64,000 nt of DNA from Enterobacteria phage Kha5h: sequence record NC_054905.1; one strand, 5' to 3'. The position numbers were made by a program, and so were the translations under genes. This document shows positions 40,412 through 63,266 of this stretch, piece after piece. The first letter of the stretch is position 1. Each line of letters opens with the position of its first letter. The notes below the pieces were generated by a model, which was given only the letters and a program-made list of their open reading frames with translations, was not told the DNA's origin and did no database searches.

Positions 40412-41248
40412 TTATAAACCATTTTCAAACCTCTTTATCATATTTATATAGTTTTCATCGGGATAACCTAGACTAACTGCTAACTTTCTAAAATTGACAT
40501 ATTTAGGTTTGTTGTTATTAATCCATAATTCTCTAAGCTCTTTTTCATAATTCCATTTAAGTTGATTTCTGCGTGCAGTTTTGCTTAAAGTTTTTCCTTT
40601 AGCTTTTAAAGCTTTTTCGGATGATTGTTTTAATTTTTGAATATTTAAAACTTCTTCTATAGATAAATTATTTTCCTTTGAATACCTTATGCAAAAATCT
40701 TTTACTACGGCTATTAGGCAATTTTTGTGAGTACCTAAAATTTCTGGGTTATTTTCTTCAACTAAAATTCCCCAATATCTTCGGTAGCGAGGCATATCCC
40801 TTGAAATCCAGTCATTATACCAAAAATCAAAGTTGGAATACATGAAAGATTTTCTTTTGCGAAGAGTATCTTGGTTTATCCATTGCTCACGTTTATCAGC
40901 CCATAACTTAATAGTAAAGTCTTTCTCTAAGTCAGAAAGCTTCTTAAATTGCGAGCTATTTACTGAGGTCATTCTCTGGAATGCATTCAGCAATCCAAAT
41001 CTTCCAGTTGAACATAAGAGATAGTGAACATATATGTGTTGATATATTGGGAGATATACTCTATTCCAAGGATATATTTTAAAATCACTATACTCAGGAA
41101 ATGCGCATTTAGGAAGTATATGATGGGCTTCTGTTTTAGATTTAATGTGAGTGTTTAACTTATACTTATCTATAATTTTTAAGTACTCATCTAAAAGTTC
41201 CCATTGCGGGAACTTTTCTTTAAGAGCAGATTTGAAATTAATATCCAT
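40412..41248 (-). CDS. putative HNH-family homing endonuclease
   Basis: 278 aa from ATG 41248; EAHHILPKCAFPEY...NRVYLPIYQHIYVH fits an HNH motif, basic C-terminal half; start overlaps the 3' end of gene 56. Confidence 0.65.
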   Translation of the reverse strand: MDINFKSALKEKFPQWELLDEYLKIIDKYKLNTHIKSKTEAHHILPKCAFPEYSDFKIYPWNRVYLPIYQHIYVHYLLCSTGRFGLLNAFQRMTSVNSSQFKKLSDLEKDFTIKLWADKREQWINQDTLRKRKSFMYSNFDFWYNDWISRDMPRYRRYWGILVEENNPEILGTHKNCLIAVVKDFCIRYSKENNLSIEEVLNIQKLKQSSEKALKAKGKTLSKTARRNQLKWNYEKELRELWINNNKPKYVNFRKLAVSLGYPDENYINMIKRFENGL

Positions 41249-41756
41249 TATCTTGACGTTCAAAATTATGTTTGTTCTTCAGATAATAAAGTTTAAAGAT
41301 TTCTTCAGCCGTAAGACCGAGACCTTGGAACATGTTCAGAACGAAATGAAGAATATCAATCATTTCGAATTTAATTTCCAACTGGTCTTGTGGAGACAAA
41401 TCAGTAATTAAAGTTTCACGACGTTCACCATGTTGAGCTTTCCAAGGCTTCCATACAGCAGATGCATCTTTTTCGCCATTGCTCATACCACCAAGAGAAG
41501 TCAATAGTTCGCGGAATTCATCATCAATATAATCTTTCTGATTACGCAGCCAATCAACAACTTCACCCGCAGTAGCCAAATCATCAGGATGACGGTTATA
41601 TTCAGGTTTATCTTTAGCTAAACGAACCTGAAGAGATTTCTGCATATCAAGCATAACTTGCAGCGGGTCTTTTTCATCACCGAGAATATCCCAGTATTCA
41701 TTTTGAGCTTTATCAGCGCCTTCAATCAGTTGACTACATTCGTTGAAATGTGGCAT
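41238..41756 (-). CDS. 56: dCTP pyrophosphatase gp56 (MazG-like)
   Basis: 172 aa, sequence and position. Confidence 0.88.
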   Translation of the reverse strand: MPHFNECSQLIEGADKAQNEYWDILGDEKDPLQVMLDMQKSLQVRLAKDKPEYNRHPDDLATAGEVVDWLRNQKDYIDDEFRELLTSLGGMSNGEKDASAVWKPWKAQHGERRETLITDLSPQDQLEIKFEMIDILHFVLNMFQGLGLTAEEIFKLYYLKNKHNFERQDNGY

Positions 41757-41829
41757 GTTATTTTTCCTTTCAATTCATGGGTTAGTAGATTAATTATACA
41801 ATAAATATATAAAGCAATAAGGAGGACAT

Positions 41830-42030
41830 ATGGTACAAAAATTAATGGCACTTGTTAATGCCATAAAAGGTAATAAAAAGCGTATAGCTTTTACTATTTC
41901 TGCTATGGTAGGAATTTTACTCTGGAACTTTATTCTATCACCTGTTGCAATTGCGCATGGTATTAATATTCCAGTAGTTACTCTTGATACATTTGTAGAT
42001 TTAGCATTTGCTTTAGTTGGGTTGATTTAA
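41830..42030 (+). CDS. small hydrophobic protein (66 aa) on the opposite strand to the surrounding early genes
   Basis: strong SD AAGGAGG 7 nt before ATG; two hydrophobic segments; AT-rich TAAATATATAAAG upstream. Confidence 0.45.
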   Translation: MVQKLMALVNAIKGNKKRIAFTISAMVGILLWNFILSPVAIAHGINIPVVTLDTFVDLAFALVGLI

Positions 42031-43055
42031 ATCTTAGCATATTTAGATAGCCGCATTTTAGCCATCAACCCCTGGGCAATATTATTTTTCATATATTCCA
42101 TAATTTGTTCAGGGGTTGCACCTTCCTTTCTAATCATATCATTGACATCTTTTGATTTCCAGGGAGATTTATCCCAAAACATAACCCTTTCTCCTGCATC
42201 AACTAATTTAGTCATTCGCTTAATAGTGTCAGGATGACGAGGTTCATTATCTAAAACCCACACACGTCTATCTTTAAATGGAACAACTTCTAGGTCTAAT
42301 TGACCACCCGTAATAGCTATACCATTTTCAATAAAAAGTGAATCTATAGGTCCTTCTAGAACATATACATCACCATCTTTAACTCGTTCGACTCCATAGA
42401 TTTTTGTTGCTTCAGGATAAGCTTTGATGGTGATATATTTTTGAGGAGCATCTTTCTTTAATGCACGTCCTTGAAAAGACTCAGCTTTTCCATTAGCATT
42501 ATAAATTGGAATAACAAGACGAGGCTCAGAAATTTCCTTTTTGTATGTTCCTGGTGCTATGCTATTAACTAATTTAGGCCATTCGGTTGTAAACCAAAGA
42601 TATTTCCATTTATCCTTTGGAATACAACGAGCTTTTACATATTTTATAATTGCATGGTCTTCCGCCAGTTTATCTAATCGAACACATGACGGAAGAGATT
42701 TAATTATTTTCTTCTCAGGTTGTTTAGGAAGTTCTTTAGGTTTTTCTACTGGACGACTTTTACCTTTTTCTTTTCTTATTTCAAAGATATACTCACGATA
42801 TAAATCAGGTTCAAACTCCTTTAAATATATTCCGATTGGTGCATGATAGTTACAGTTATAACAATGAATATTTCCTTCATTATTATCACCATAATACCAT
42901 CCACGAGCTTTATTCTGGTCGGTTTTTGAATCTCCACAAACAGGACATCTAAACCGTAATTTAAAAGTTGAACTATTATTTACTTGTGTGAATTTAGGTA
43001 AATGAGCTAATGCACGGTATGCAAACTCATTATCAATCCAAGGTATTGATGACAT
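42027..43055 (-). CDS. 61: DNA primase gp61
   Basis: 342 aa; zinc-ribbon CPVC...CYNC and Toprim region. Confidence 0.95.
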   Translation of the reverse strand: MSSIPWIDNEFAYRALAHLPKFTQVNNSSTFKLRFRCPVCGDSKTDQNKARGWYYGDNNEGNIHCYNCNYHAPIGIYLKEFEPDLYREYIFEIRKEKGKSRPVEKPKELPKQPEKKIIKSLPSCVRLDKLAEDHAIIKYVKARCIPKDKWKYLWFTTEWPKLVNSIAPGTYKKEISEPRLVIPIYNANGKAESFQGRALKKDAPQKYITIKAYPEATKIYGVERVKDGDVYVLEGPIDSLFIENGIAITGGQLDLEVVPFKDRRVWVLDNEPRHPDTIKRMTKLVDAGERVMFWDKSPWKSKDVNDMIRKEGATPEQIMEYMKNNIAQGLMAKMRLSKYAKI

Positions 43056-43057
43056 TT

Positions 43058-43222
43058 TTACTCTTCTTTTTCTTTAGATTCCTCTTTTTTCTTTTTAGGA
43101 ATCTGCTCAGGGCCTTTATTTACTACAGCGCCTGACGTTGTTCCAGTAGAGATATTTTCAGGATTACCACCTGAATCTCCAGCGACCATATCTTCTTTAA
43201 TAAATTCTTTATATGTTTTCAT
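43058..43222 (-). CDS. possible small protein (54 aa)
   Basis: hand-translated MKTYKEFIKEDMVAGDSGGNPENISTGTTSGAVVNKGPEQIPKKKKEESKEKEE; ATG lies inside the 49-bp junction repeat. Confidence 0.45.
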   Translation of the reverse strand: MKTYKEFIKEDMVAGDSGGNPENISTGTTSGAVVNKGPEQIPKKKKEESKEKEE

Positions 43223-43268
43223 ATTAACCTCTATTCATAAAAGCATTAAAAATTTGGTCATCAATAGA
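43220..43268. repeat. 49-bp direct repeat, copy 1 (gene-junction repeat)
   Basis: 48/49 identical to 43578..43626; covers the last 14 codons, stop, and next start codon. Confidence 0.9.
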
Positions 43269-43580
43269 TGGAATAGCAACCTTTTCGGCATCATTTAGCA
43301 AATCATTAATTTCATCAGATAGCATAACACATGTGCCTTTATTTCCTGTAATTGTTACTGCACAATTACGAACGTTTTCTTTATCAAATTTTAGGTTAAT
43401 ATTTTCGTAGTGAAAATCCTTTAATGCCGAATATATCTTTAAAATGAAATTGTCTTTTACTACAATAAACCCAACTTCACTATTAAAACGTGGTTCATGG
43501 AAACTGTAATAAACCTTTTCATCTATAAAATCGTATGAAATTTTTTCCATTTTTAAATATGAAAATTCAGAACTATACAT
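43224..43580 (-). CDS. hypothetical protein (118 aa), paralog of the adjacent 208-aa protein
   Basis: shares C-terminal SIDDQIFNAFMNRG and an F(I/V)VKDNxI motif with 43582..44208. Confidence 0.6.
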   Translation of the reverse strand: MYSSEFSYLKMEKISYDFIDEKVYYSFHEPRFNSEVGFIVVKDNFILKIYSALKDFHYENINLKFDKENVRNCAVTITGNKGTCVMLSDEINDLLNDAEKVAIPSIDDQIFNAFMNRG

Positions 43581-43626
43581 ATTAACCTTTATTCATAAAA
43601 GCATTAAAAATTTGGTCATCAATAGA
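43578..43626. repeat. 49-bp direct repeat, copy 2
   Basis: see copy 1. Confidence 0.9.
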
Positions 43627-44208
43627 AACATTTACTTTAGACTGTTTTTCAGATGGCAATTCATATCCACATATTACAATTTTATGATCAATATTAAAAT
43701 ACACAGAAGCAATATGATTAATGATATTTTCAGTGAAGTCTAAATCGACATCAATATCTTTTTGACCAAAGCCCAAAGGATAAATAATGCGAGTAATTCG
43801 ATTATCTTTAACAAAGATTCCACCGACATACTCTGTACTGCGTTTAAAGTCTACACGCCGACGAAATGAAAAATATTCAGGCTCTCTATGAGCTCGGCTC
43901 ATAGGACACAACGAGTAACTAGAATAAGAGATGTCAAATCCTACACCTTCGATATGAGCCAAAGTGTTATGATTAAACCAATTATAATCGTACGCCAAAT
44001 CCATTAGATTATAATATGTAAAAGGCACCGGATTAACATCATTAGTCACAAGCATATAATTAGCAACTGCTATAATTTCATTGTTTTTAACGAATACAAA
44101 CCGTGATTGATGCGAATGACCTGGACCCGCGTTTTCACGATTAATGATATAACACTGGGCACCTTTATATTTGTATGTATCTTTGCACTTGTGCATTTGA
44201 TAGAGCAT
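43582..44208 (-). CDS. hypothetical protein (208 aa), 61.2-like by position
   Basis: track ORF with two internal copies of the FVKNN/FVKDN motif; C-terminal SIDDQIFNAFMNKG. Confidence 0.6.
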   Translation of the reverse strand: MLYQMHKCKDTYKYKGAQCYIINRENAGPGHSHQSRFVFVKNNEIIAVANYMLVTNDVNPVPFTYYNLMDLAYDYNWFNHNTLAHIEGVGFDISYSSYSLCPMSRAHREPEYFSFRRRVDFKRSTEYVGGIFVKDNRITRIIYPLGFGQKDIDVDLDFTENIINHIASVYFNIDHKIVICGYELPSEKQSKVNVSIDDQIFNAFMNKG

Positions 44209-44501
44209 TATTCACCTACCACTTCAGCGATGATATTTTTGTTATTAAAGTTTTTATCGCAATACAGAACATAATTATACTGCATTACACCACCAGACTT
44301 AAGTTGTTTTTGCACTTCAGCTTTCATTTCAGGACGATCGCGCTCAACGATATTCATAATATCCGCTTCAATTTGAGTTTCAACTTCAGTCTGATCTGCA
44401 GTCATAGACCATTCACACAAATCTTTATCATATCCTGCCATAGCAGGCTGAGCAGCGCAAGAAGCTAAAGCAAAAATTGTGGCAAAGATAAATTTTTTCA
44501 T
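44208..44501 (-). CDS. sp: periplasmic protein Spackle-like (superinfection exclusion)
   Basis: 97 aa with N-terminal signal peptide MKKFIFATIFALASCAAQPAMA, size and position as T4 sp. Confidence 0.7.
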   Translation of the reverse strand: MKKFIFATIFALASCAAQPAMAGYDKDLCEWSMTADQTEVETQIEADIMNIVERDRPEMKAEVQKQLKSGGVMQYNYVLYCDKNFNNKNIIAEVVGE

Positions 44502-44561
44502 GATAATCTCCTCAGTAGTTTATGTTTATATAGTATCTCAATTTCCAACAAAAGTAAACAG

Positions 44562-44861
44562 CTATTTTAAAACTTCTGCGTAATCACATGTTACAAACTG
44601 TTTCTCTAGCTTAACGATTTTACGAAAATACCTTTTATACTGACGAATCTGCCTCTTCGTAGGACGTACAGCAAACTTAATAAATTCCACTAGACCAAAT
44701 GGAGGACTTTCTTCTGCTGGAATATCTAACACCAATTCCCACGTATCTGCAATAAGTGCTTTGAATTGCGTATTTTTCCTGACGTTATACGGAGTAGGTT
44801 TAAATAAAACAATATGCATATTATCCTCGGCAATCCACTTCGCACACTTTCTTGTCATCAA
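44562..44861 (-). CDS. hypothetical protein (99 aa), 61.4-like by position
   Basis: track ORF. Confidence 0.5.
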   Translation of the reverse strand: MMTRKCAKWIAEDNMHIVLFKPTPYNVRKNTQFKALIADTWELVLDIPAEESPPFGLVEFIKFAVRPTKRQIRQYKRYFRKIVKLEKQFVTCDYAEVLK

Positions 44862-45003
44862 TGAAAGCTTTAACTAATGCTTTATTAACTTCAGCATACT
44901 GAGTAGTAGCCCATTGAACGTCATCTTTCATCATTGTGGTTTCTTTAGTAAACATGCTTTCATTCTTAAACCACCCCATAAAAACTACCTTTACCAATTC
45001 CAT
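44821..45003 (-). CDS. dmd: Dmd-like antitoxin (discriminator of mRNA degradation)
   Basis: 60 aa at the T4 dmd position next to gene 41. Confidence 0.65.
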   Translation of the reverse strand: MELVKVVFMGWFKNESMFTKETTMMKDDVQWATTQYAEVNKALVKAFIDDKKVCEVDCRG

Positions 45004-45032: not shown

Positions 45033-45062
45033 ACTATACCATAGTCTCGTCAGCTTGTAAAC
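45033..45062 (-). promoter_or_regulatory. phage early promoter (GTTTAC, 18 nt, TATAGT) upstream of the dmd-like gene
   Basis: minus-strand GTTTAC 45057..45062, TATAGT 45033..45038. Confidence 0.5.
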
Positions 45063-46489
45063 TAAAATTTTAATTCATTCGCCAAAGCATCTAACTGAGC
45101 TCGAGTCGATTCGTTTCTTTGATAGCGATTCTGTTCAGCCTGAATCTGTTGTGAACCTGCTACCTCACTCACTTCAGTTGGAGTAGAATCTTGTTCAATT
45201 TCTACCCATTTCTGATTTCCCTTTTGAACACCCATCAAAAACTTATTCCACTTATTCTTATCGCCATATCGTGATTTGATTTGCTTAATGAGTTGTTGTT
45301 CAGCAGCTGCTAGCTCCTCGGTTTCAATGACCGCAAGCATAAAATCAGCTGTTGCTGGAAGACCAGCAGATTCTGCAATATCGCTCATGTTAACATCAGA
45401 AGAGTCCCAAGCTTGTTTACCGACCTGTGCTGCAGTCCAAAGAACAGTTTCGGTTTCAACAGCCAGAGCACGCAATTCCTCTGCAATAGCTTTAACAGTT
45501 GTGTAACTATTTTCTGAATAAACTCTGATGCGGCAAGATTTACAAATACCTAGATAGTCGACAATAATGATTGTTGGAACAAAATTCTTTTTGAGCTTTA
45601 ATTCATTTAAAAGTGATCGAAATGTATTAGCATCTGCTCCACCAGTAGGGTACTGTTTAACGATTAAACGACCAAGAGTAGATTTCTCACGCCATTTTTC
45701 CATTTTTCCTTTATACTCGGCGTAAGAAATATGTCCATCATCAATATCGTCAAGAGAAACATCGAGCATATTAGCATCAATACGTTTAGCGCAGACTTCT
45801 TCTGCCATTTCCATGGAGATATAAAGAACGTTATGACCAAGCTGCAAATAATCTGCTGCTAATGAACAAAGTCCTAATGATTTACCAACGTTAACGCCAG
45901 CCATTAAAACGTTCAGTGTTCCAGTCTCAGCTCCGCCTTTAGTAATTTTGTTTAGAATTCTGAGTTTAAATGGAACCTTACGAGCTTTATTCATATAAGA
46001 TAGCCAACGCGCTTCGTAGTCATCCATCCAATCATGACCAACGTAACTATCAAATGAAATTGATAATGCTTGGCGCATGATGTCAGGAATAGCACCTACA
46101 TCTGGCATTTTCTTATTTCGTTTTTCCGGAGGAAGCTCAGCATTAGTTTGAATTTCGATTATTTTAGACGTAGCATTAAACATCGCCCTTTGCTGAACAT
46201 ATTTTTCTGTTTCTTTTACTAACCAACTGTGGTCTTCCGGAGAATCAGCTAGTTTTGAAATAAGTGTTTTTACACCAGAATATTCTGTTTCAGTAAATGA
46301 ACTATTTTCTAATGCAACATTTAACGCATTAATAGATGGAACGCTATGATACTCATTGACATGAGATTTAATTAATTTGAATGTATTTTTAGCTGGACCA
46401 CTTTCAAAATATTCTGAATCCATATATGGCCAAACTTTTGAAAAATAAGCTTGATCAAATATGAGATGAGAAAGAATAATTTCTACCAC
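45062..46489 (-). CDS. 41: replicative DNA helicase gp41 (DnaB-like)
   Basis: 475 aa; Walker A GVNVGKS. Confidence 0.95.
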   Translation of the reverse strand: MVEIILSHLIFDQAYFSKVWPYMDSEYFESGPAKNTFKLIKSHVNEYHSVPSINALNVALENSSFTETEYSGVKTLISKLADSPEDHSWLVKETEKYVQQRAMFNATSKIIEIQTNAELPPEKRNKKMPDVGAIPDIMRQALSISFDSYVGHDWMDDYEARWLSYMNKARKVPFKLRILNKITKGGAETGTLNVLMAGVNVGKSLGLCSLAADYLQLGHNVLYISMEMAEEVCAKRIDANMLDVSLDDIDDGHISYAEYKGKMEKWREKSTLGRLIVKQYPTGGADANTFRSLLNELKLKKNFVPTIIIVDYLGICKSCRIRVYSENSYTTVKAIAEELRALAVETETVLWTAAQVGKQAWDSSDVNMSDIAESAGLPATADFMLAVIETEELAAAEQQLIKQIKSRYGDKNKWNKFLMGVQKGNQKWVEIEQDSTPTEVSEVAGSQQIQAEQNRYQRNESTRAQLDALANELKF

Positions 46490-50892: not shown

Positions 50893-53589
50893 TCAGCCAA
50901 ACAGGAAGTCTAACGAAGCTTTTTCTTCATAGTCCATGCCAGCCGATTCACACATACCCGCAAGCGGTTTAACAAACGATTTTTGGAACAAAGTTGAGTA
51001 GTCAATCCAAGACAGTACGTCAGAACGAATTTCTTTTGGAAGTTCTGTACCCGACGGCCAAGCAATGCATTTGTCACCAAATGGATTTCCTTCACGCAAT
51101 GGAAGAACCATTACTTTATTTCCATCCAAAATTGGAGCTACACCTAAACCGCTAACAGCTCGACGATAAGTTAGCACACCACGAATATGGAACGGACATT
51201 TAAATCCTGGCCAACCTTTATCATCATATTTCGCTATATCGTTCGCAGTTTTTACTTCAGCAATAACTTTATAGTCAAGTTGACGATATTCTTTCTCGAA
51301 GTTCTTGTAATATTCTTGGACAGACTCTTCACCTTCCTGAAGAATACGACGAATACTTTCTTCGAGAGCTTCTTGAACCGCTTTAGGCGTTGAACTTTGC
51401 TGAGTTTCCATACCCATGATTTTTAGATGCGGTTCAGCAAATCGCTTATCTTCCATATCATAAACGTTCAGAGCATAACGCTTTTTCGCTTTCCAAAATC
51501 CACCAACACCCTTTGAACCAAGCGGAGGGCAAGAAATAGCTTCACGGTCCATATGCATCAGATGCTCGCGGTTATTCATATAATCACATAACTCACGATA
51601 TGCAACATCAATCATAGGTTCCATCTTTTTCTTACCGAACTGATTCATAAATTCAACCAAATCGTTCTGCTCTTTGAATCGGTCAAGACCTACTTTTTCA
51701 ATAACTTTATCTACGCAAACATATACCGAATCAGTATCACCTGCTGCGATGAAATCTTCGCCATTAGTTCCGCACACTTTATTCAGATACTCATTAATTT
51801 TACGAGCAATCCACTGAATACCAACTTGGCCGAAAATTGTGATAGCAGTAGCATTTCGCAAATCATAGTAACGGAAATGAATATTACCAAGAGCACCGTA
51901 AAGGCTGTTAATAAGAATTTTACGGTTCAGCTGATTTGTATTAGCAAGTGTAGCTGCTTTTTCACATTCCTCAATCAGACTATTGAGAACAGATTCAGTA
52001 TAATTCGATAGTTCATTTAAGAAATCATCATTGAACTTAACATATCGTTCAACTTCTGGTTTAGTTGAACAAGACCCTGCGCCTTTCATAATAATCTTTT
52101 TAATAGCTTCGGCATTCATTTCTTCAGCGAACATTTTCTTTTTCCAATCTTTACGCTGGAAAAATACTTTAGCGATTTCCTTTGGAATGATACCTTCTTG
52201 ATGCTTATCGTACATCCATCCATTCGGAGAACAAGAATATTCATCACTCGGTTTAGGAGCTGTTCCTGCGATATATTCATGAATTGGATGAACTTTAAAC
52301 TGACCACGAATAGTCTCAGGACTAATGTTAACCTGACGAATAATGCTCGGATACAGAGACGTCAAGTCAAAACTCATAATATATCGACGAGCAATTGGTT
52401 TAGGTTCAAATACAAATGCACCCGGAAAACTTTGTTTAACGTGCGAACCTTGTTGAGGAATAACCTTGTGTTCACCTTTCAATGAGTTAAAAATAATAGC
52501 ATCCCAAGTTTTAATAGGACTCATTACACCAGAAAAAGGCATTTTAGCGTAATAAGACATACTTAAAACTAGATCGATAAACCCGCGAATTTTATCAATT
52601 GCTTGAACTGATTCTACGTCAATGATGTTATAACTAATGTATCGTTGATGATTAGTCTCACGAAGTTTATTAATAGGACCGTCGTATGGTAATTTACCTT
52701 TTTTGGTTTCATGTTGAGCAACTGATTCCAAAGAGAATGACGGCAAATTAGTAAAAGCAAATTTCTTGTACAAATCTAAATAATCAAGAATAGATACGCC
52801 ATCAATAGAATAAATTTCTTTGCTGCCGTACATATTTTGAATTAGTTTAGATTTTACTCGACCGATTGGAGAGAAGCGTTTCATACTACGTTCACCGAGA
52901 ACCATTTTAACGCGATTCATGATATACGGAACGTCAAATCCCTCAATATTCCAACCAGTAAAAATAGCAGGTCGTTTCTGTTCCCAGAGATTGATATATT
53001 CCATGAGCATATCACGCTCATTATCGAATGGCATATAAATTACTCGGTCAAGAATTTCTTGAGGAACTTCATCACCACCTTCACAGTCAAGCTTAGCAGC
53101 TAACTTTGCATCCCATTTTGATACTGAACCGTACATTGAATTCAAAAGGTCGAAAACATAAAAACGATCATCAATTGAATCGTAATGAGTGATAGCATCA
53201 ATTTCATATTCAGCTTTCATTGGGTCAGGAAATTTATCACCAGTAACCTCAATGTCACAGTTAGCTACACGAACAAATTTTCGGTCATAAACAATTTCTG
53301 AACCGTATGTATCACTGATATAAGCGAGTTTAAAATCGTTCATACCGAGAGCTTCGAGACCGATGTCTTCCATTCGTTTCATCCAATCTCGAGCATCTTT
53401 CATTGATGGAAATTTTTGAGGAGCGCAGTTTTTACCATAGATGTCTTTGTATTTTGACTCTTCCTTACAATGCCTAAACATAGTTGGAAGATATTCTACT
53501 TCACGAGTACGTTCCTTTCCGTTTTCATCAATATAACGTTCAACAATGTTATTTCCAACTGTTTCGATAGAGATATAAAATTCTTTCAT
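50893..53589 (-). CDS. 43: DNA polymerase gp43 (family B)
   Basis: 898 aa, sequence and length as T4 gp43. Confidence 0.97.
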   Translation of the reverse strand: MKEFYISIETVGNNIVERYIDENGKERTREVEYLPTMFRHCKEESKYKDIYGKNCAPQKFPSMKDARDWMKRMEDIGLEALGMNDFKLAYISDTYGSEIVYDRKFVRVANCDIEVTGDKFPDPMKAEYEIDAITHYDSIDDRFYVFDLLNSMYGSVSKWDAKLAAKLDCEGGDEVPQEILDRVIYMPFDNERDMLMEYINLWEQKRPAIFTGWNIEGFDVPYIMNRVKMVLGERSMKRFSPIGRVKSKLIQNMYGSKEIYSIDGVSILDYLDLYKKFAFTNLPSFSLESVAQHETKKGKLPYDGPINKLRETNHQRYISYNIIDVESVQAIDKIRGFIDLVLSMSYYAKMPFSGVMSPIKTWDAIIFNSLKGEHKVIPQQGSHVKQSFPGAFVFEPKPIARRYIMSFDLTSLYPSIIRQVNISPETIRGQFKVHPIHEYIAGTAPKPSDEYSCSPNGWMYDKHQEGIIPKEIAKVFFQRKDWKKKMFAEEMNAEAIKKIIMKGAGSCSTKPEVERYVKFNDDFLNELSNYTESVLNSLIEECEKAATLANTNQLNRKILINSLYGALGNIHFRYYDLRNATAITIFGQVGIQWIARKINEYLNKVCGTNGEDFIAAGDTDSVYVCVDKVIEKVGLDRFKEQNDLVEFMNQFGKKKMEPMIDVAYRELCDYMNNREHLMHMDREAISCPPLGSKGVGGFWKAKKRYALNVYDMEDKRFAEPHLKIMGMETQQSSTPKAVQEALEESIRRILQEGEESVQEYYKNFEKEYRQLDYKVIAEVKTANDIAKYDDKGWPGFKCPFHIRGVLTYRRAVSGLGVAPILDGNKVMVLPLREGNPFGDKCIAWPSGTELPKEIRSDVLSWIDYSTLFQKSFVKPLAGMCESAGMDYEEKASLDFLFG

Positions 53590-62506: not shown

Positions 62507-62725
62507 TTATTTCTCTAATATAAAATAAAAATCATCATCTGTTAAATGATACCGATAGTTTAATTCTACACCATTAGATTTAAAAGCGGTATCATACGGA
62601 TTTTCTGGATCAATATCAATGTCAAGAGCTAAAACTTCCCTGAGATACATTTTAAGTAAATAGGGAATAGCTTCAACTTCAGGTATTTCTTCCAAGAATC
62701 CGGAGAGGTTAATCGTTAGCCTCAT
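62507..62725 (-). CDS. hypothetical protein (72 aa)
   Basis: track ORF. Confidence 0.5.
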
Positions 62726-63266
62726 ATAAAAAATCCAAACTAGGAGAATCGTCTACAACACTTTTCTTTTCAGCCCCCGGTGTTCTATAGGTTGATTCTT
62801 CGTAATGCGTCATTTTATCGTAGATGTCTTGAATAAAAGTTTCATCTACTAACGCAACCATATCGTCGTCACGACTGTCATAGACATTGTGAACGAAGTA
62901 ACTATATTTCTTTGCAACTTCCTTACGTTCTTTTTTAATACGCTGGACGAATGCATTAAAACAAGCTTGAGTTATATACGCATGTGGGTTTTTATATTTC
63001 GTTTCATCAAAATTATGAAGCCCCTTAATAGAAGCTTCTATACCATCTGCAATCATTTCTTGTTTCCAAGACTGGGTGTATCCTGAAAAGTTGAAACGTT
63101 TAGATAAGCCTTCTGCAATAAGCATAATGGCTAATCCGATAGTATCATTCTGACGAACTACTTTATTTGGGTCTTTATTATTTGCTAATTCTGTTTTCCA
63201 ATCAATAATAGCTTGTAAAAGCTCTTTATTGTTTACGTAATTATATTTAGGCTTAGTTTCTGACAT
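62709..63266 (-). CDS. 55: late-gene sigma factor gp55
   Basis: 185 aa from ATG 63266 ([24 protein letters not shown]...). Confidence 0.9.

Follow-up and report, generated by a model that had tools for sequence, protein, structure and literature searches.

Why should two neighbouring phage genes end in almost the same 49 nucleotides (nt) when their DNA is otherwise not alike? The question is raised by a stretch of 64,000 nt from Enterobacteria phage Kha5h (NC_054905.1), referred to below as the window, in which adfA (gene 61.2), coding for a protein of 208 amino acids (aa), is followed by a gene for a protein of 118 aa that we call the short protein. As set out below, the repeated 49 nt are a 3' end that two old paralogs, both members of the AdfA family, have in common and on which several constraints act, and no insertion scar. 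The window is a T4-like (Tequatrovirus) genome, and the 2.1 kb around the locus are 99.4% identical to Shigella phage Sf22 and 98% to RB18. The features concerned are the following (the evidence is given in brackets; PHROG numbers are protein families, ORF stands for open reading frame and SD for Shine-Dalgarno sequence).

43058-43222, minus strand: gene 61.1, 54 aa, its ATG being the last 3 nt of repeat copy 1 (ORF list; PHROG 1823, 7e-34; T4 synteny)
43220-43268, minus strand: repeat copy 1, the 3' tail of the 118-aa gene (SIDDQIFNAFMNRG and stop) with the SD (GAGG) and the ATG of 61.1
43224-43580, minus strand: short AdfA-family paralog, 118 aa, orthologue of RB32ORF033c (Pfam AdfA, PHROG 4122, AlphaFold2 model, dN/dS)
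43578-43626, minus strand: repeat copy 2, the 3' tail of adfA (ending NKG and stop) with the SD and the ATG of the short gene
43582-44208, minus strand: adfA (gene 61.2), 208 aa, anti-DarT factor A (Pfam PF23813; T4 gp61.2 identity; literature; residue mapping)
44208-44501, minus strand: sp (spackle), 97 aa (Pfam T4_Spackle, 1.3e-44)

Anatomy of the repeat

A preliminary description of the sequence had reported the two repeats, the 358-bp unit between them, the ORFs and the layout of the junctions, and the repeat search and the ORF list confirm it in every detail. There is one family of 49-nt direct repeats (43220-43268 and 43578-43626), with copies spaced 358 nt apart and identical at 48 of 49 positions (98%); the sole mismatch, at 43231/43589, makes the difference between Arg and Lys. 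Each copy comprises the last 14 codons and the TAA stop of one gene, then a single T and the ATG with which the next gene starts, and the 118-aa and 208-aa proteins end in SIDDQIFNAFMNRG and SIDDQIFNAFMNKG, respectively. When the peptide DDQIFNAFM was back-translated into a nucleotide pattern, exactly two matches were found in the window, with zero expected (100 shuffles). The motif F(I/V)VKDNxI, which had been described along with the shared terminal peptide, is present too, in the form FIVVKDNFI in the short protein and IFVKDNRI in the C-terminal half of AdfA; the copy in the N-terminal half of AdfA is degenerate (FVFVKNNEI).

What had been missed is that the repeat is a C-terminal peptide found family-wide together with a mapped promoter, P61. 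DDQIFNAFM is invariant in 21 of the 21 tails examined, from Tequatrovirus, Mosigvirus, Gaprivervirus and a Yersinia phage, a set in which the AdfA proteins measure 206-216 aa, the short forms 116-122 aa and a third type 145 aa; the tail consensus of these family members is (S/A)(I/V)DDQIFNAFM(N/K)(R/K)(G/D). Six of the nine codons of the peptide vary synonymously while the peptide itself stays invariant, a direct sign that selection acts on the protein.

The short protein is a member of the AdfA family

The 208-aa protein matches the Pfam AdfA model (PF23813) over its full length with 449 bits and is 96% identical to T4 gp61.2, so that the preliminary description was right to name gene 61.2 as an anti-DarT factor. 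AdfA, which belongs to the small number of phage factors known to inhibit DarT toxins, was found through RB69 escape mutants and binds DarT1; residue 164 of the RB69 protein, in a helix of the C-terminal domain, is a binding switch, and the change R164H turns on DarT1 binding (Johannesman et al.). By residue mapping, AdfA of the window carries His165, the DarT1-neutralising allele type. T4-type AdfA carries His as well, yet T4 shows no DarTG1 phenotype when adfA is deleted, the task being performed by AdfN (gp30.3). The AlphaFold2 (AF2) model of AdfA, with a mean predicted local distance difference test (pLDDT) score of 70.7, has two units of five strands plus a helix and a tail helix. Similarity between the N-terminal and C-terminal halves is marginal (hhalign probability 11-29%), and a search of solved structures with AdfA gave no match.

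That the 118-aa and 208-aa proteins are paralogs, as had been proposed from the shared peptide and motif, is borne out by BLASTP (35% identity over 103 aa with AdfA residues 109-208, E 9e-10) and by hhalign against the C-terminal half of AdfA (probability 97.9%, E 4e-13); the hhalign probability against the 145-aa type is 98%. The short protein passes the cut-off of the Pfam AdfA model (34.1 bits against a threshold of 27, E 2.3e-8), with a match to profile positions 113-211 only. It has no region matching positions 1-112, and thus its architecture is not the two-domain one of the 206-216 aa proteins. It lies where an AdfA-family gene is expected, between sp and 61.1, with the DDQIFNAFM tail at its C terminus, and forms a PHROG of its own (4122, 6.7e-73). 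Its AF2 model has a pLDDT of 83, above 90 in the core, and consists of five strands, a helix, a strand, a helix and then the tail helix (residues 106-115), which is poorly anchored (pLDDT about 50). The ratio of non-synonymous to synonymous substitution (dN/dS) is 0.18-0.38, and the gene has its own SD and a coupled start. The short ORF is thus a real gene under purifying selection whose product has a confidently predicted fold.

AdfA (T4 gp61.2, RB69 AdfA) and the short protein have in common the locus, the C-terminal domain, the invariant C-terminal peptide and the translational-coupling junction, and they probably also share an early transcription unit. They differ in that the short protein is half as long, has one domain instead of two and a body that is only about 35% identical. 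At the specificity residue AdfA proteins have His, Arg or Asn, whereas the short proteins have an invariant Cys (Cys73 in the window) in place of the His of the DarT1-neutralising type. The short protein is essentially an AdfA domain that retains the position of the specificity-switch residue and the invariant tail. A third branch of the family is formed by the proteins of 145-146 aa (PHROG 8539) of Gaprivervirus and Dhakavirus, which share the tail and their place behind sp, but have a longer insert before the tail and another body; they are likewise uncharacterised.

The preliminary description had put forward the short gene as an uncharacterised candidate. Our literature search agrees with this in so far as no paper characterising it was found; the gene is, however, not newly discovered, since it has been annotated as "similar to gp61.2" in RB32, RB18 and Sf21 and is already above the threshold of the Pfam AdfA model. 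NCBIfam contains no model, and fold searches gave no informative relative. An exhaustive profile search of 1.84 billion representatives placed only about nine representatives in the family, and every member with a named source comes from a T4-like enterobacterial phage, so that no bacterial relative is at hand from which a function could be borrowed. Of three weaker matches (E 3e-4 to 6.5e-4), two are long multi-stretch proteins that we have treated as spurious, and the third is a 63-aa fragment.

A middle promoter within the repeat

MotA-dependent middle promoters are defined by a MotA box, (a/t)(a/t)(a/t)TGCTTtA, located 12±1 bp upstream of a TAnnnT -10 element. Both repeat copies read TAATGCTTTT, a 12-bp spacer and TAATAT, with one mismatch at the last position of the MotA box, and the whole repeat on the coding strand is TCTATTGATGACCAAATTTT-TAATGCTTTT-ATGAATARAGGT-TAATAT-G. 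P61 is listed among the mapped T4 middle promoters in Table 1 of Hinton (2010), with its start at T4 19122 (the original reference being Marshall, Sharma and Hinton, 1999). In T4, TAATAT lies at exactly -12 to -7 of this start, with TGCTTTT 12 bp upstream of it. Since the T4 49-mer and copy 1 of the window are identical at 49 of 49 positions, copy 1 is P61, the start being covered by orthology.

43239-43248, minus strand: MotA box of copy 1 (TAATGCTTTT), followed by a 12-bp spacer, the -10 element TAATAT at 43221-43226 and a predicted start at about 43214
43597-43606, minus strand: MotA box of copy 2, with the -10 element at 43579-43584 and a predicted start at about 43572-43574; identical to copy 1

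In Tequatrovirus the MotA box lies over the codons for N-A-F, and the -10 element TAATAT is composed of the TAA stop, the single T and the AT of the next ATG. P61 drives the essential primase gene (Hinton, 2010), and the constraints on peptide and promoter together explain much of the conservation of the repeat sequence. Phages with both genes would, judging from these motifs, carry P61 twice, a duplication that is a by-product of the tandem paralogs. Copy 2 has the MotA box, 12-bp spacer and -10 element of T4 P61, but it fronts the short gene and not 61.1, and the initiation region is different. It is presumably an active promoter, and in the annotation of phage Lutter 27-nt "promoter" features stand on both repeat copies. 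The predicted start of copy 2 falls within codons 3-4 of the short ORF, downstream of its ATG, so this copy cannot drive the full-length short protein, which must be translated from the upstream sp/adfA message by way of the coupled TAA-T-ATG start. What copy 2 would add is middle-mode transcription of 61.1 and 61.

Four states of the locus

Alignment with T4 and T2, proposed in the preliminary description as a check, reveals that the two genes are not universal. T4 differs from the window by the exact absence of 358 bp and has no 118-aa gene; T2 has no adfA, only the short gene. With the two-gene arrangement of the window and with W143, which has neither gene, this makes four locus states (both genes, adfA only, short gene only, neither). 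In T2, what comes after the sp stop region at this junction is TAGAGGTTAGTATG, the final 14 nt of an adfA tail. This remnant means that adfA was once there and that the two-gene state is the older. In W143 (MZ189262, locus L028, 1550-1640) sp is joined directly to 61.1 through a scar of the T2 type (GGTGAATAAT joined to TAGAGGCTAATATG), and neither an AdfA-family gene nor the P61 MotA box is left.

The T2-type junction is present in 141 phage records. A total of 297 phage records contain the short gene (identity at least 60%) and 485 contain full-length AdfA; a rough split gives about 150 records with both genes, about 140 with the short gene only and about 330 with adfA only (all record counts include duplicate GenBank and RefSeq entries). 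These figures come from protein and junction-specific searches, which we have used in place of the 258 records covering at least 80% of the 2.1-kb query, a count in which two-gene and T4-type loci are inseparable (a T4-type locus still covers 83%). A scan of IMG/VR with the back-translated tail yielded only 16 loci, little beyond the phages of GenBank.

The short gene of T2 bears on earlier treatments of this phage. In Johannesman et al., T2 counts as a phage that lacks an adfA homologue, an assumption to be corrected, as is the label in the T2 RefSeq record (NC_054931, 2194-2857), where the short paralog is called "61.2" though it is the orthologue of RB32ORF033c and not adfA. A 1-nt insertion near the 3' end of the T2 sp gene shortens its product to 92 aa.

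Outside the T4 and T2 types the pair is found in other guises. Phages of the Gaprivervirus type carry the 145-aa member and an orthologue of the short gene (44-50% identity) in the same order, and a Yersinia phage likewise has the short-gene orthologue at this position, preceded by a different family member that bears the tail. Both genes of Sf21 are diverged alleles, arranged in the same way.

Origin and maintenance of the tandem pair

Insertion of a cassette by recombination at a conserved junction was the explanation given in the preliminary description; stated in full, a T4-like ancestor with adfA only would recently have gained the 118-aa gene from another phage. The exact 358-bp presence/absence with respect to T4, with the break hidden inside the repeat, is what such a gain would leave, and so is DNA identity confined to the junction, a feature that had been correctly described and that speaks against a recent whole-gene duplication. 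Exchange at the tails does occur, as adfA and short-gene alleles assort independently: in Lutter, part of adfA shows 88% identity to the window and the body of the short gene 98.6%, so that the break lies at the tail. Nevertheless, the short-gene orthologues in the same position in Gaprivervirus and the Yersinia phage, at 44-50% identity and behind another tail-bearing member, the diverged alleles of both genes in Sf21 and the adfA-tail remnant upstream of the short gene in T2-type genomes are at odds with a recent arrival, and direct repeats that recombine homologously should give rise to deletions no less readily than to gains. We regard a recent gain as unlikely and favour, from these comparisons, an old tandem pair with repeated losses. 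For T4, specifically, loss of the short gene through recombination of one repeat with the other is the more likely course. Four of the four adfA-only Tequatrovirus loci examined have the Arg codon of the distal copy, as expected for a deletion by crossover within the repeat; adfA carries Lys in five of the six two-gene loci. Both amplification and deletion of this island through recombination at short homologies are documented for T4 (Srikant et al., 2022). The dmd-tifA amplification and deletion described there involves the same island and a change in copy number through short direct homologies, but it was recent and experimentally evolved, whereas the present polymorphism is natural, old and partly brought about through a 49-bp functional repeat. 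A mobile cassette or homing element with target-site duplication was also considered and rejected, as the 358-bp unit has no mobility domain (endonuclease, integrase) and the repeats consist of coding tails that several genera conserve.

The near-identity of the two tails could be due to nothing more than purifying selection on the overlapping peptide, promoter, SD and start codon, with no recombination or conversion. The peptide is indeed invariant family-wide, the MotA box, the ATG and everything between them do not vary in either copy among the Tequatrovirus loci examined, save for the K/R and G/D codons, and P61 drives an essential gene. Yet the six DDQIFNAFM codons that change synonymously between genera are identical between the paralogs of the window, co-variation in the codons that precede the MotA box, where the promoter imposes no constraint, follows lineage and not paralog, and the deletion states reveal recombination at the tails; selection by itself is a very improbable explanation. 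Within a Tequatrovirus genome the tails of the paralogs differ by 1-3 of 49 nt, whereas orthologous tails differ by 6-8 of 49 nt between genera and the gene bodies are saturated (only 35% identical). Tails that are closer to each other than to their orthologues of another genus point to homogenisation, and this pattern of substitutions indicates that the two tails have been kept alike within Tequatrovirus by concerted evolution. Still less credible, to the extent that we hardly consider it, is that the 118-aa ORF is a functionless, decaying remnant of a duplicated C-terminal half of adfA. T4 and W143 do without the gene, it is half-size and it is phenotype-less so far. A decaying sequence, though, would not be expected to have a dN/dS of 0.18-0.38, a full-length ORF kept in 297 records and across genera, the place of sole family member in 141 T2-type records, a model core with pLDDT above 90 and its own SD and coupled start.

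A possible role for the short protein

These observations taken together make it probable, in our opinion, that what lies here, within the known T-even "anti-TA island" (dmd, tifA, sp, adfA), is a small tandem array of genes of the AdfA family, with promoter-bearing shared tails through which genes are lost and with a short protein that would be an AdfA-like binder. In such an array AdfA would consist of two five-strand-plus-helix units and a C-terminal helix, and the 118-aa protein of one unit and the same helix. The tail DNA in Tequatrovirus doubles as the MotA-dependent P61 for the primase gene and as the SD and start codon of the downstream gene; the directly repeated tails would serve as recombination substrates and, with microhomology deletions, would give rise to the four locus states. 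The short protein would be expressed early on the sp/adfA transcript and, in the manner of AdfA, would bind its toxin stoichiometrically and inhibit it; the toxin would be of the DarT type (or another), and the specificity unlike that of AdfA. The tail helix would be the constant functional element and the body the variable recognition part. With moderate confidence, the short protein can be regarded as an early-expressed, stoichiometric toxin binder whose target differs from DarT1.

Several points weigh against this picture. The function of the short protein is inferred, and its invariant Cys, in place of His, suggests that it may not bind DarT1 at all. The predicted start of copy 2 beyond the ATG of the short gene means that this copy provides no full-length short protein. 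The tails are short, so the signal of concerted evolution comes from few sites, and part of it could reflect parallel promoter constraint. In Gaprivervirus the MotA box is degraded (TGCCTTC) and the peptide intact; the promoter therefore cannot explain the conservation of the tail outside Tequatrovirus. Finally, the internal duplication in AdfA is no more than plausible, given the marginal similarity of the two halves and, mainly, the predicted topology of a mediocre model.

A bolder version, in which a fast-evolving recognition body is combined with an invariant amphipathic helix as a common effector or docking element (plugging the active site of the toxin, for example, or tethering the inhibitor to a conserved partner of phage or host such as the replisome), and the DNA of the helix is at once promoter, translation-coupling signal and portable recombination site, so that T-even phages could acquire, lose and exchange anti-toxin cassettes at this single junction much as an integron does, seems to us decidedly doubtful. 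The low-confidence, amphipathic and invariant tail helix looks like a docking element. We have also compared the tail with the known sliding-clamp-binding tails of gp43 (50893-51012, minus strand), which ends in KASLDFLFG, and of gp55 (62709-62828, minus strand). The family tail SIDDQIFNAFM is likewise an acidic and aromatic helix at the extreme C terminus, but the likeness to the SLDFLF/Y termini of gp43 and gp55 is weak, too weak to claim clamp binding.

As a lead, the short protein is modest, being an uncharacterised member of the known AdfA family and no new kind of system. A half-size member present in about 300 sequenced T-even phage records, and the sole one in those of the T2 type, is a candidate neutraliser of other DarT variants or of other toxins. 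The overlap of peptide, mapped middle promoter and recombination-prone repeat is also a compact example of how constraint may create portable homology and, through it, gene gain and loss in an anti-defence island.

The surrounding region

The remaining features between primase and helicase are the following.

42027-43055, minus strand: primase 61
44562-44819, minus strand: tifA (gene 61.4), 85 aa, ToxN inhibitor (Pfam DUF7279, 6.5e-20; T4 synteny; Srikant et al.)
44821-45003, minus strand: dmd, 60 aa, RnlA/LsoA antitoxin (Pfam Dmd, 1.8e-45)
45033-45061, minus strand: sigma-70-type early-promoter-like site upstream of dmd (TTTACA-17-TATAGT with TG; consensus scan only)
45062-46489, minus strand: helicase 41

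The preliminary description had spoken of a Spackle-like and a Dmd-like gene in an anti-defence hotspot. Both are genuine orthologues of sp and dmd by their Pfam matches (1.3e-44 and 1.8e-45), and the hotspot is the published "anti-TA island", a name given by Srikant et al. to the interval with dmd, tifA and adfA. The site at 45033-45061 agrees with the report of an early promoter ahead of dmd-tifA in T4. The mechanical ORF call for tifA (44562-44861, minus strand) runs to a TTG start, giving 99 aa and an overlap with dmd; the start equivalent to that of T4 is the ATG at 44819 (85 aa). Phages of the Gaprivervirus type (VR25, locus L004, 2859-3080; loci L025-L027) have a second tifA-like gene (73 aa, with a PTKRQIR motif) between the short paralog and 61.1, so that the island holds two tifA-family genes there.

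Further from the locus, a 283-aa ORF at 40412-41263 (minus strand) matches the homing-endonuclease PHROG 655 (9e-34) and an HNH PHROG, with no Pfam match, and sits directly downstream of gene 56, overlapping its 3' end. Between gene 56 and primase 61 (41756-42030) the window does not have the dam methyltransferase gene found there in T4. In its place there is a 66-aa ORF on the plus strand (41830-42030; PHROG 2024, RB69ORF029w-like), as in RB18 and RB32.

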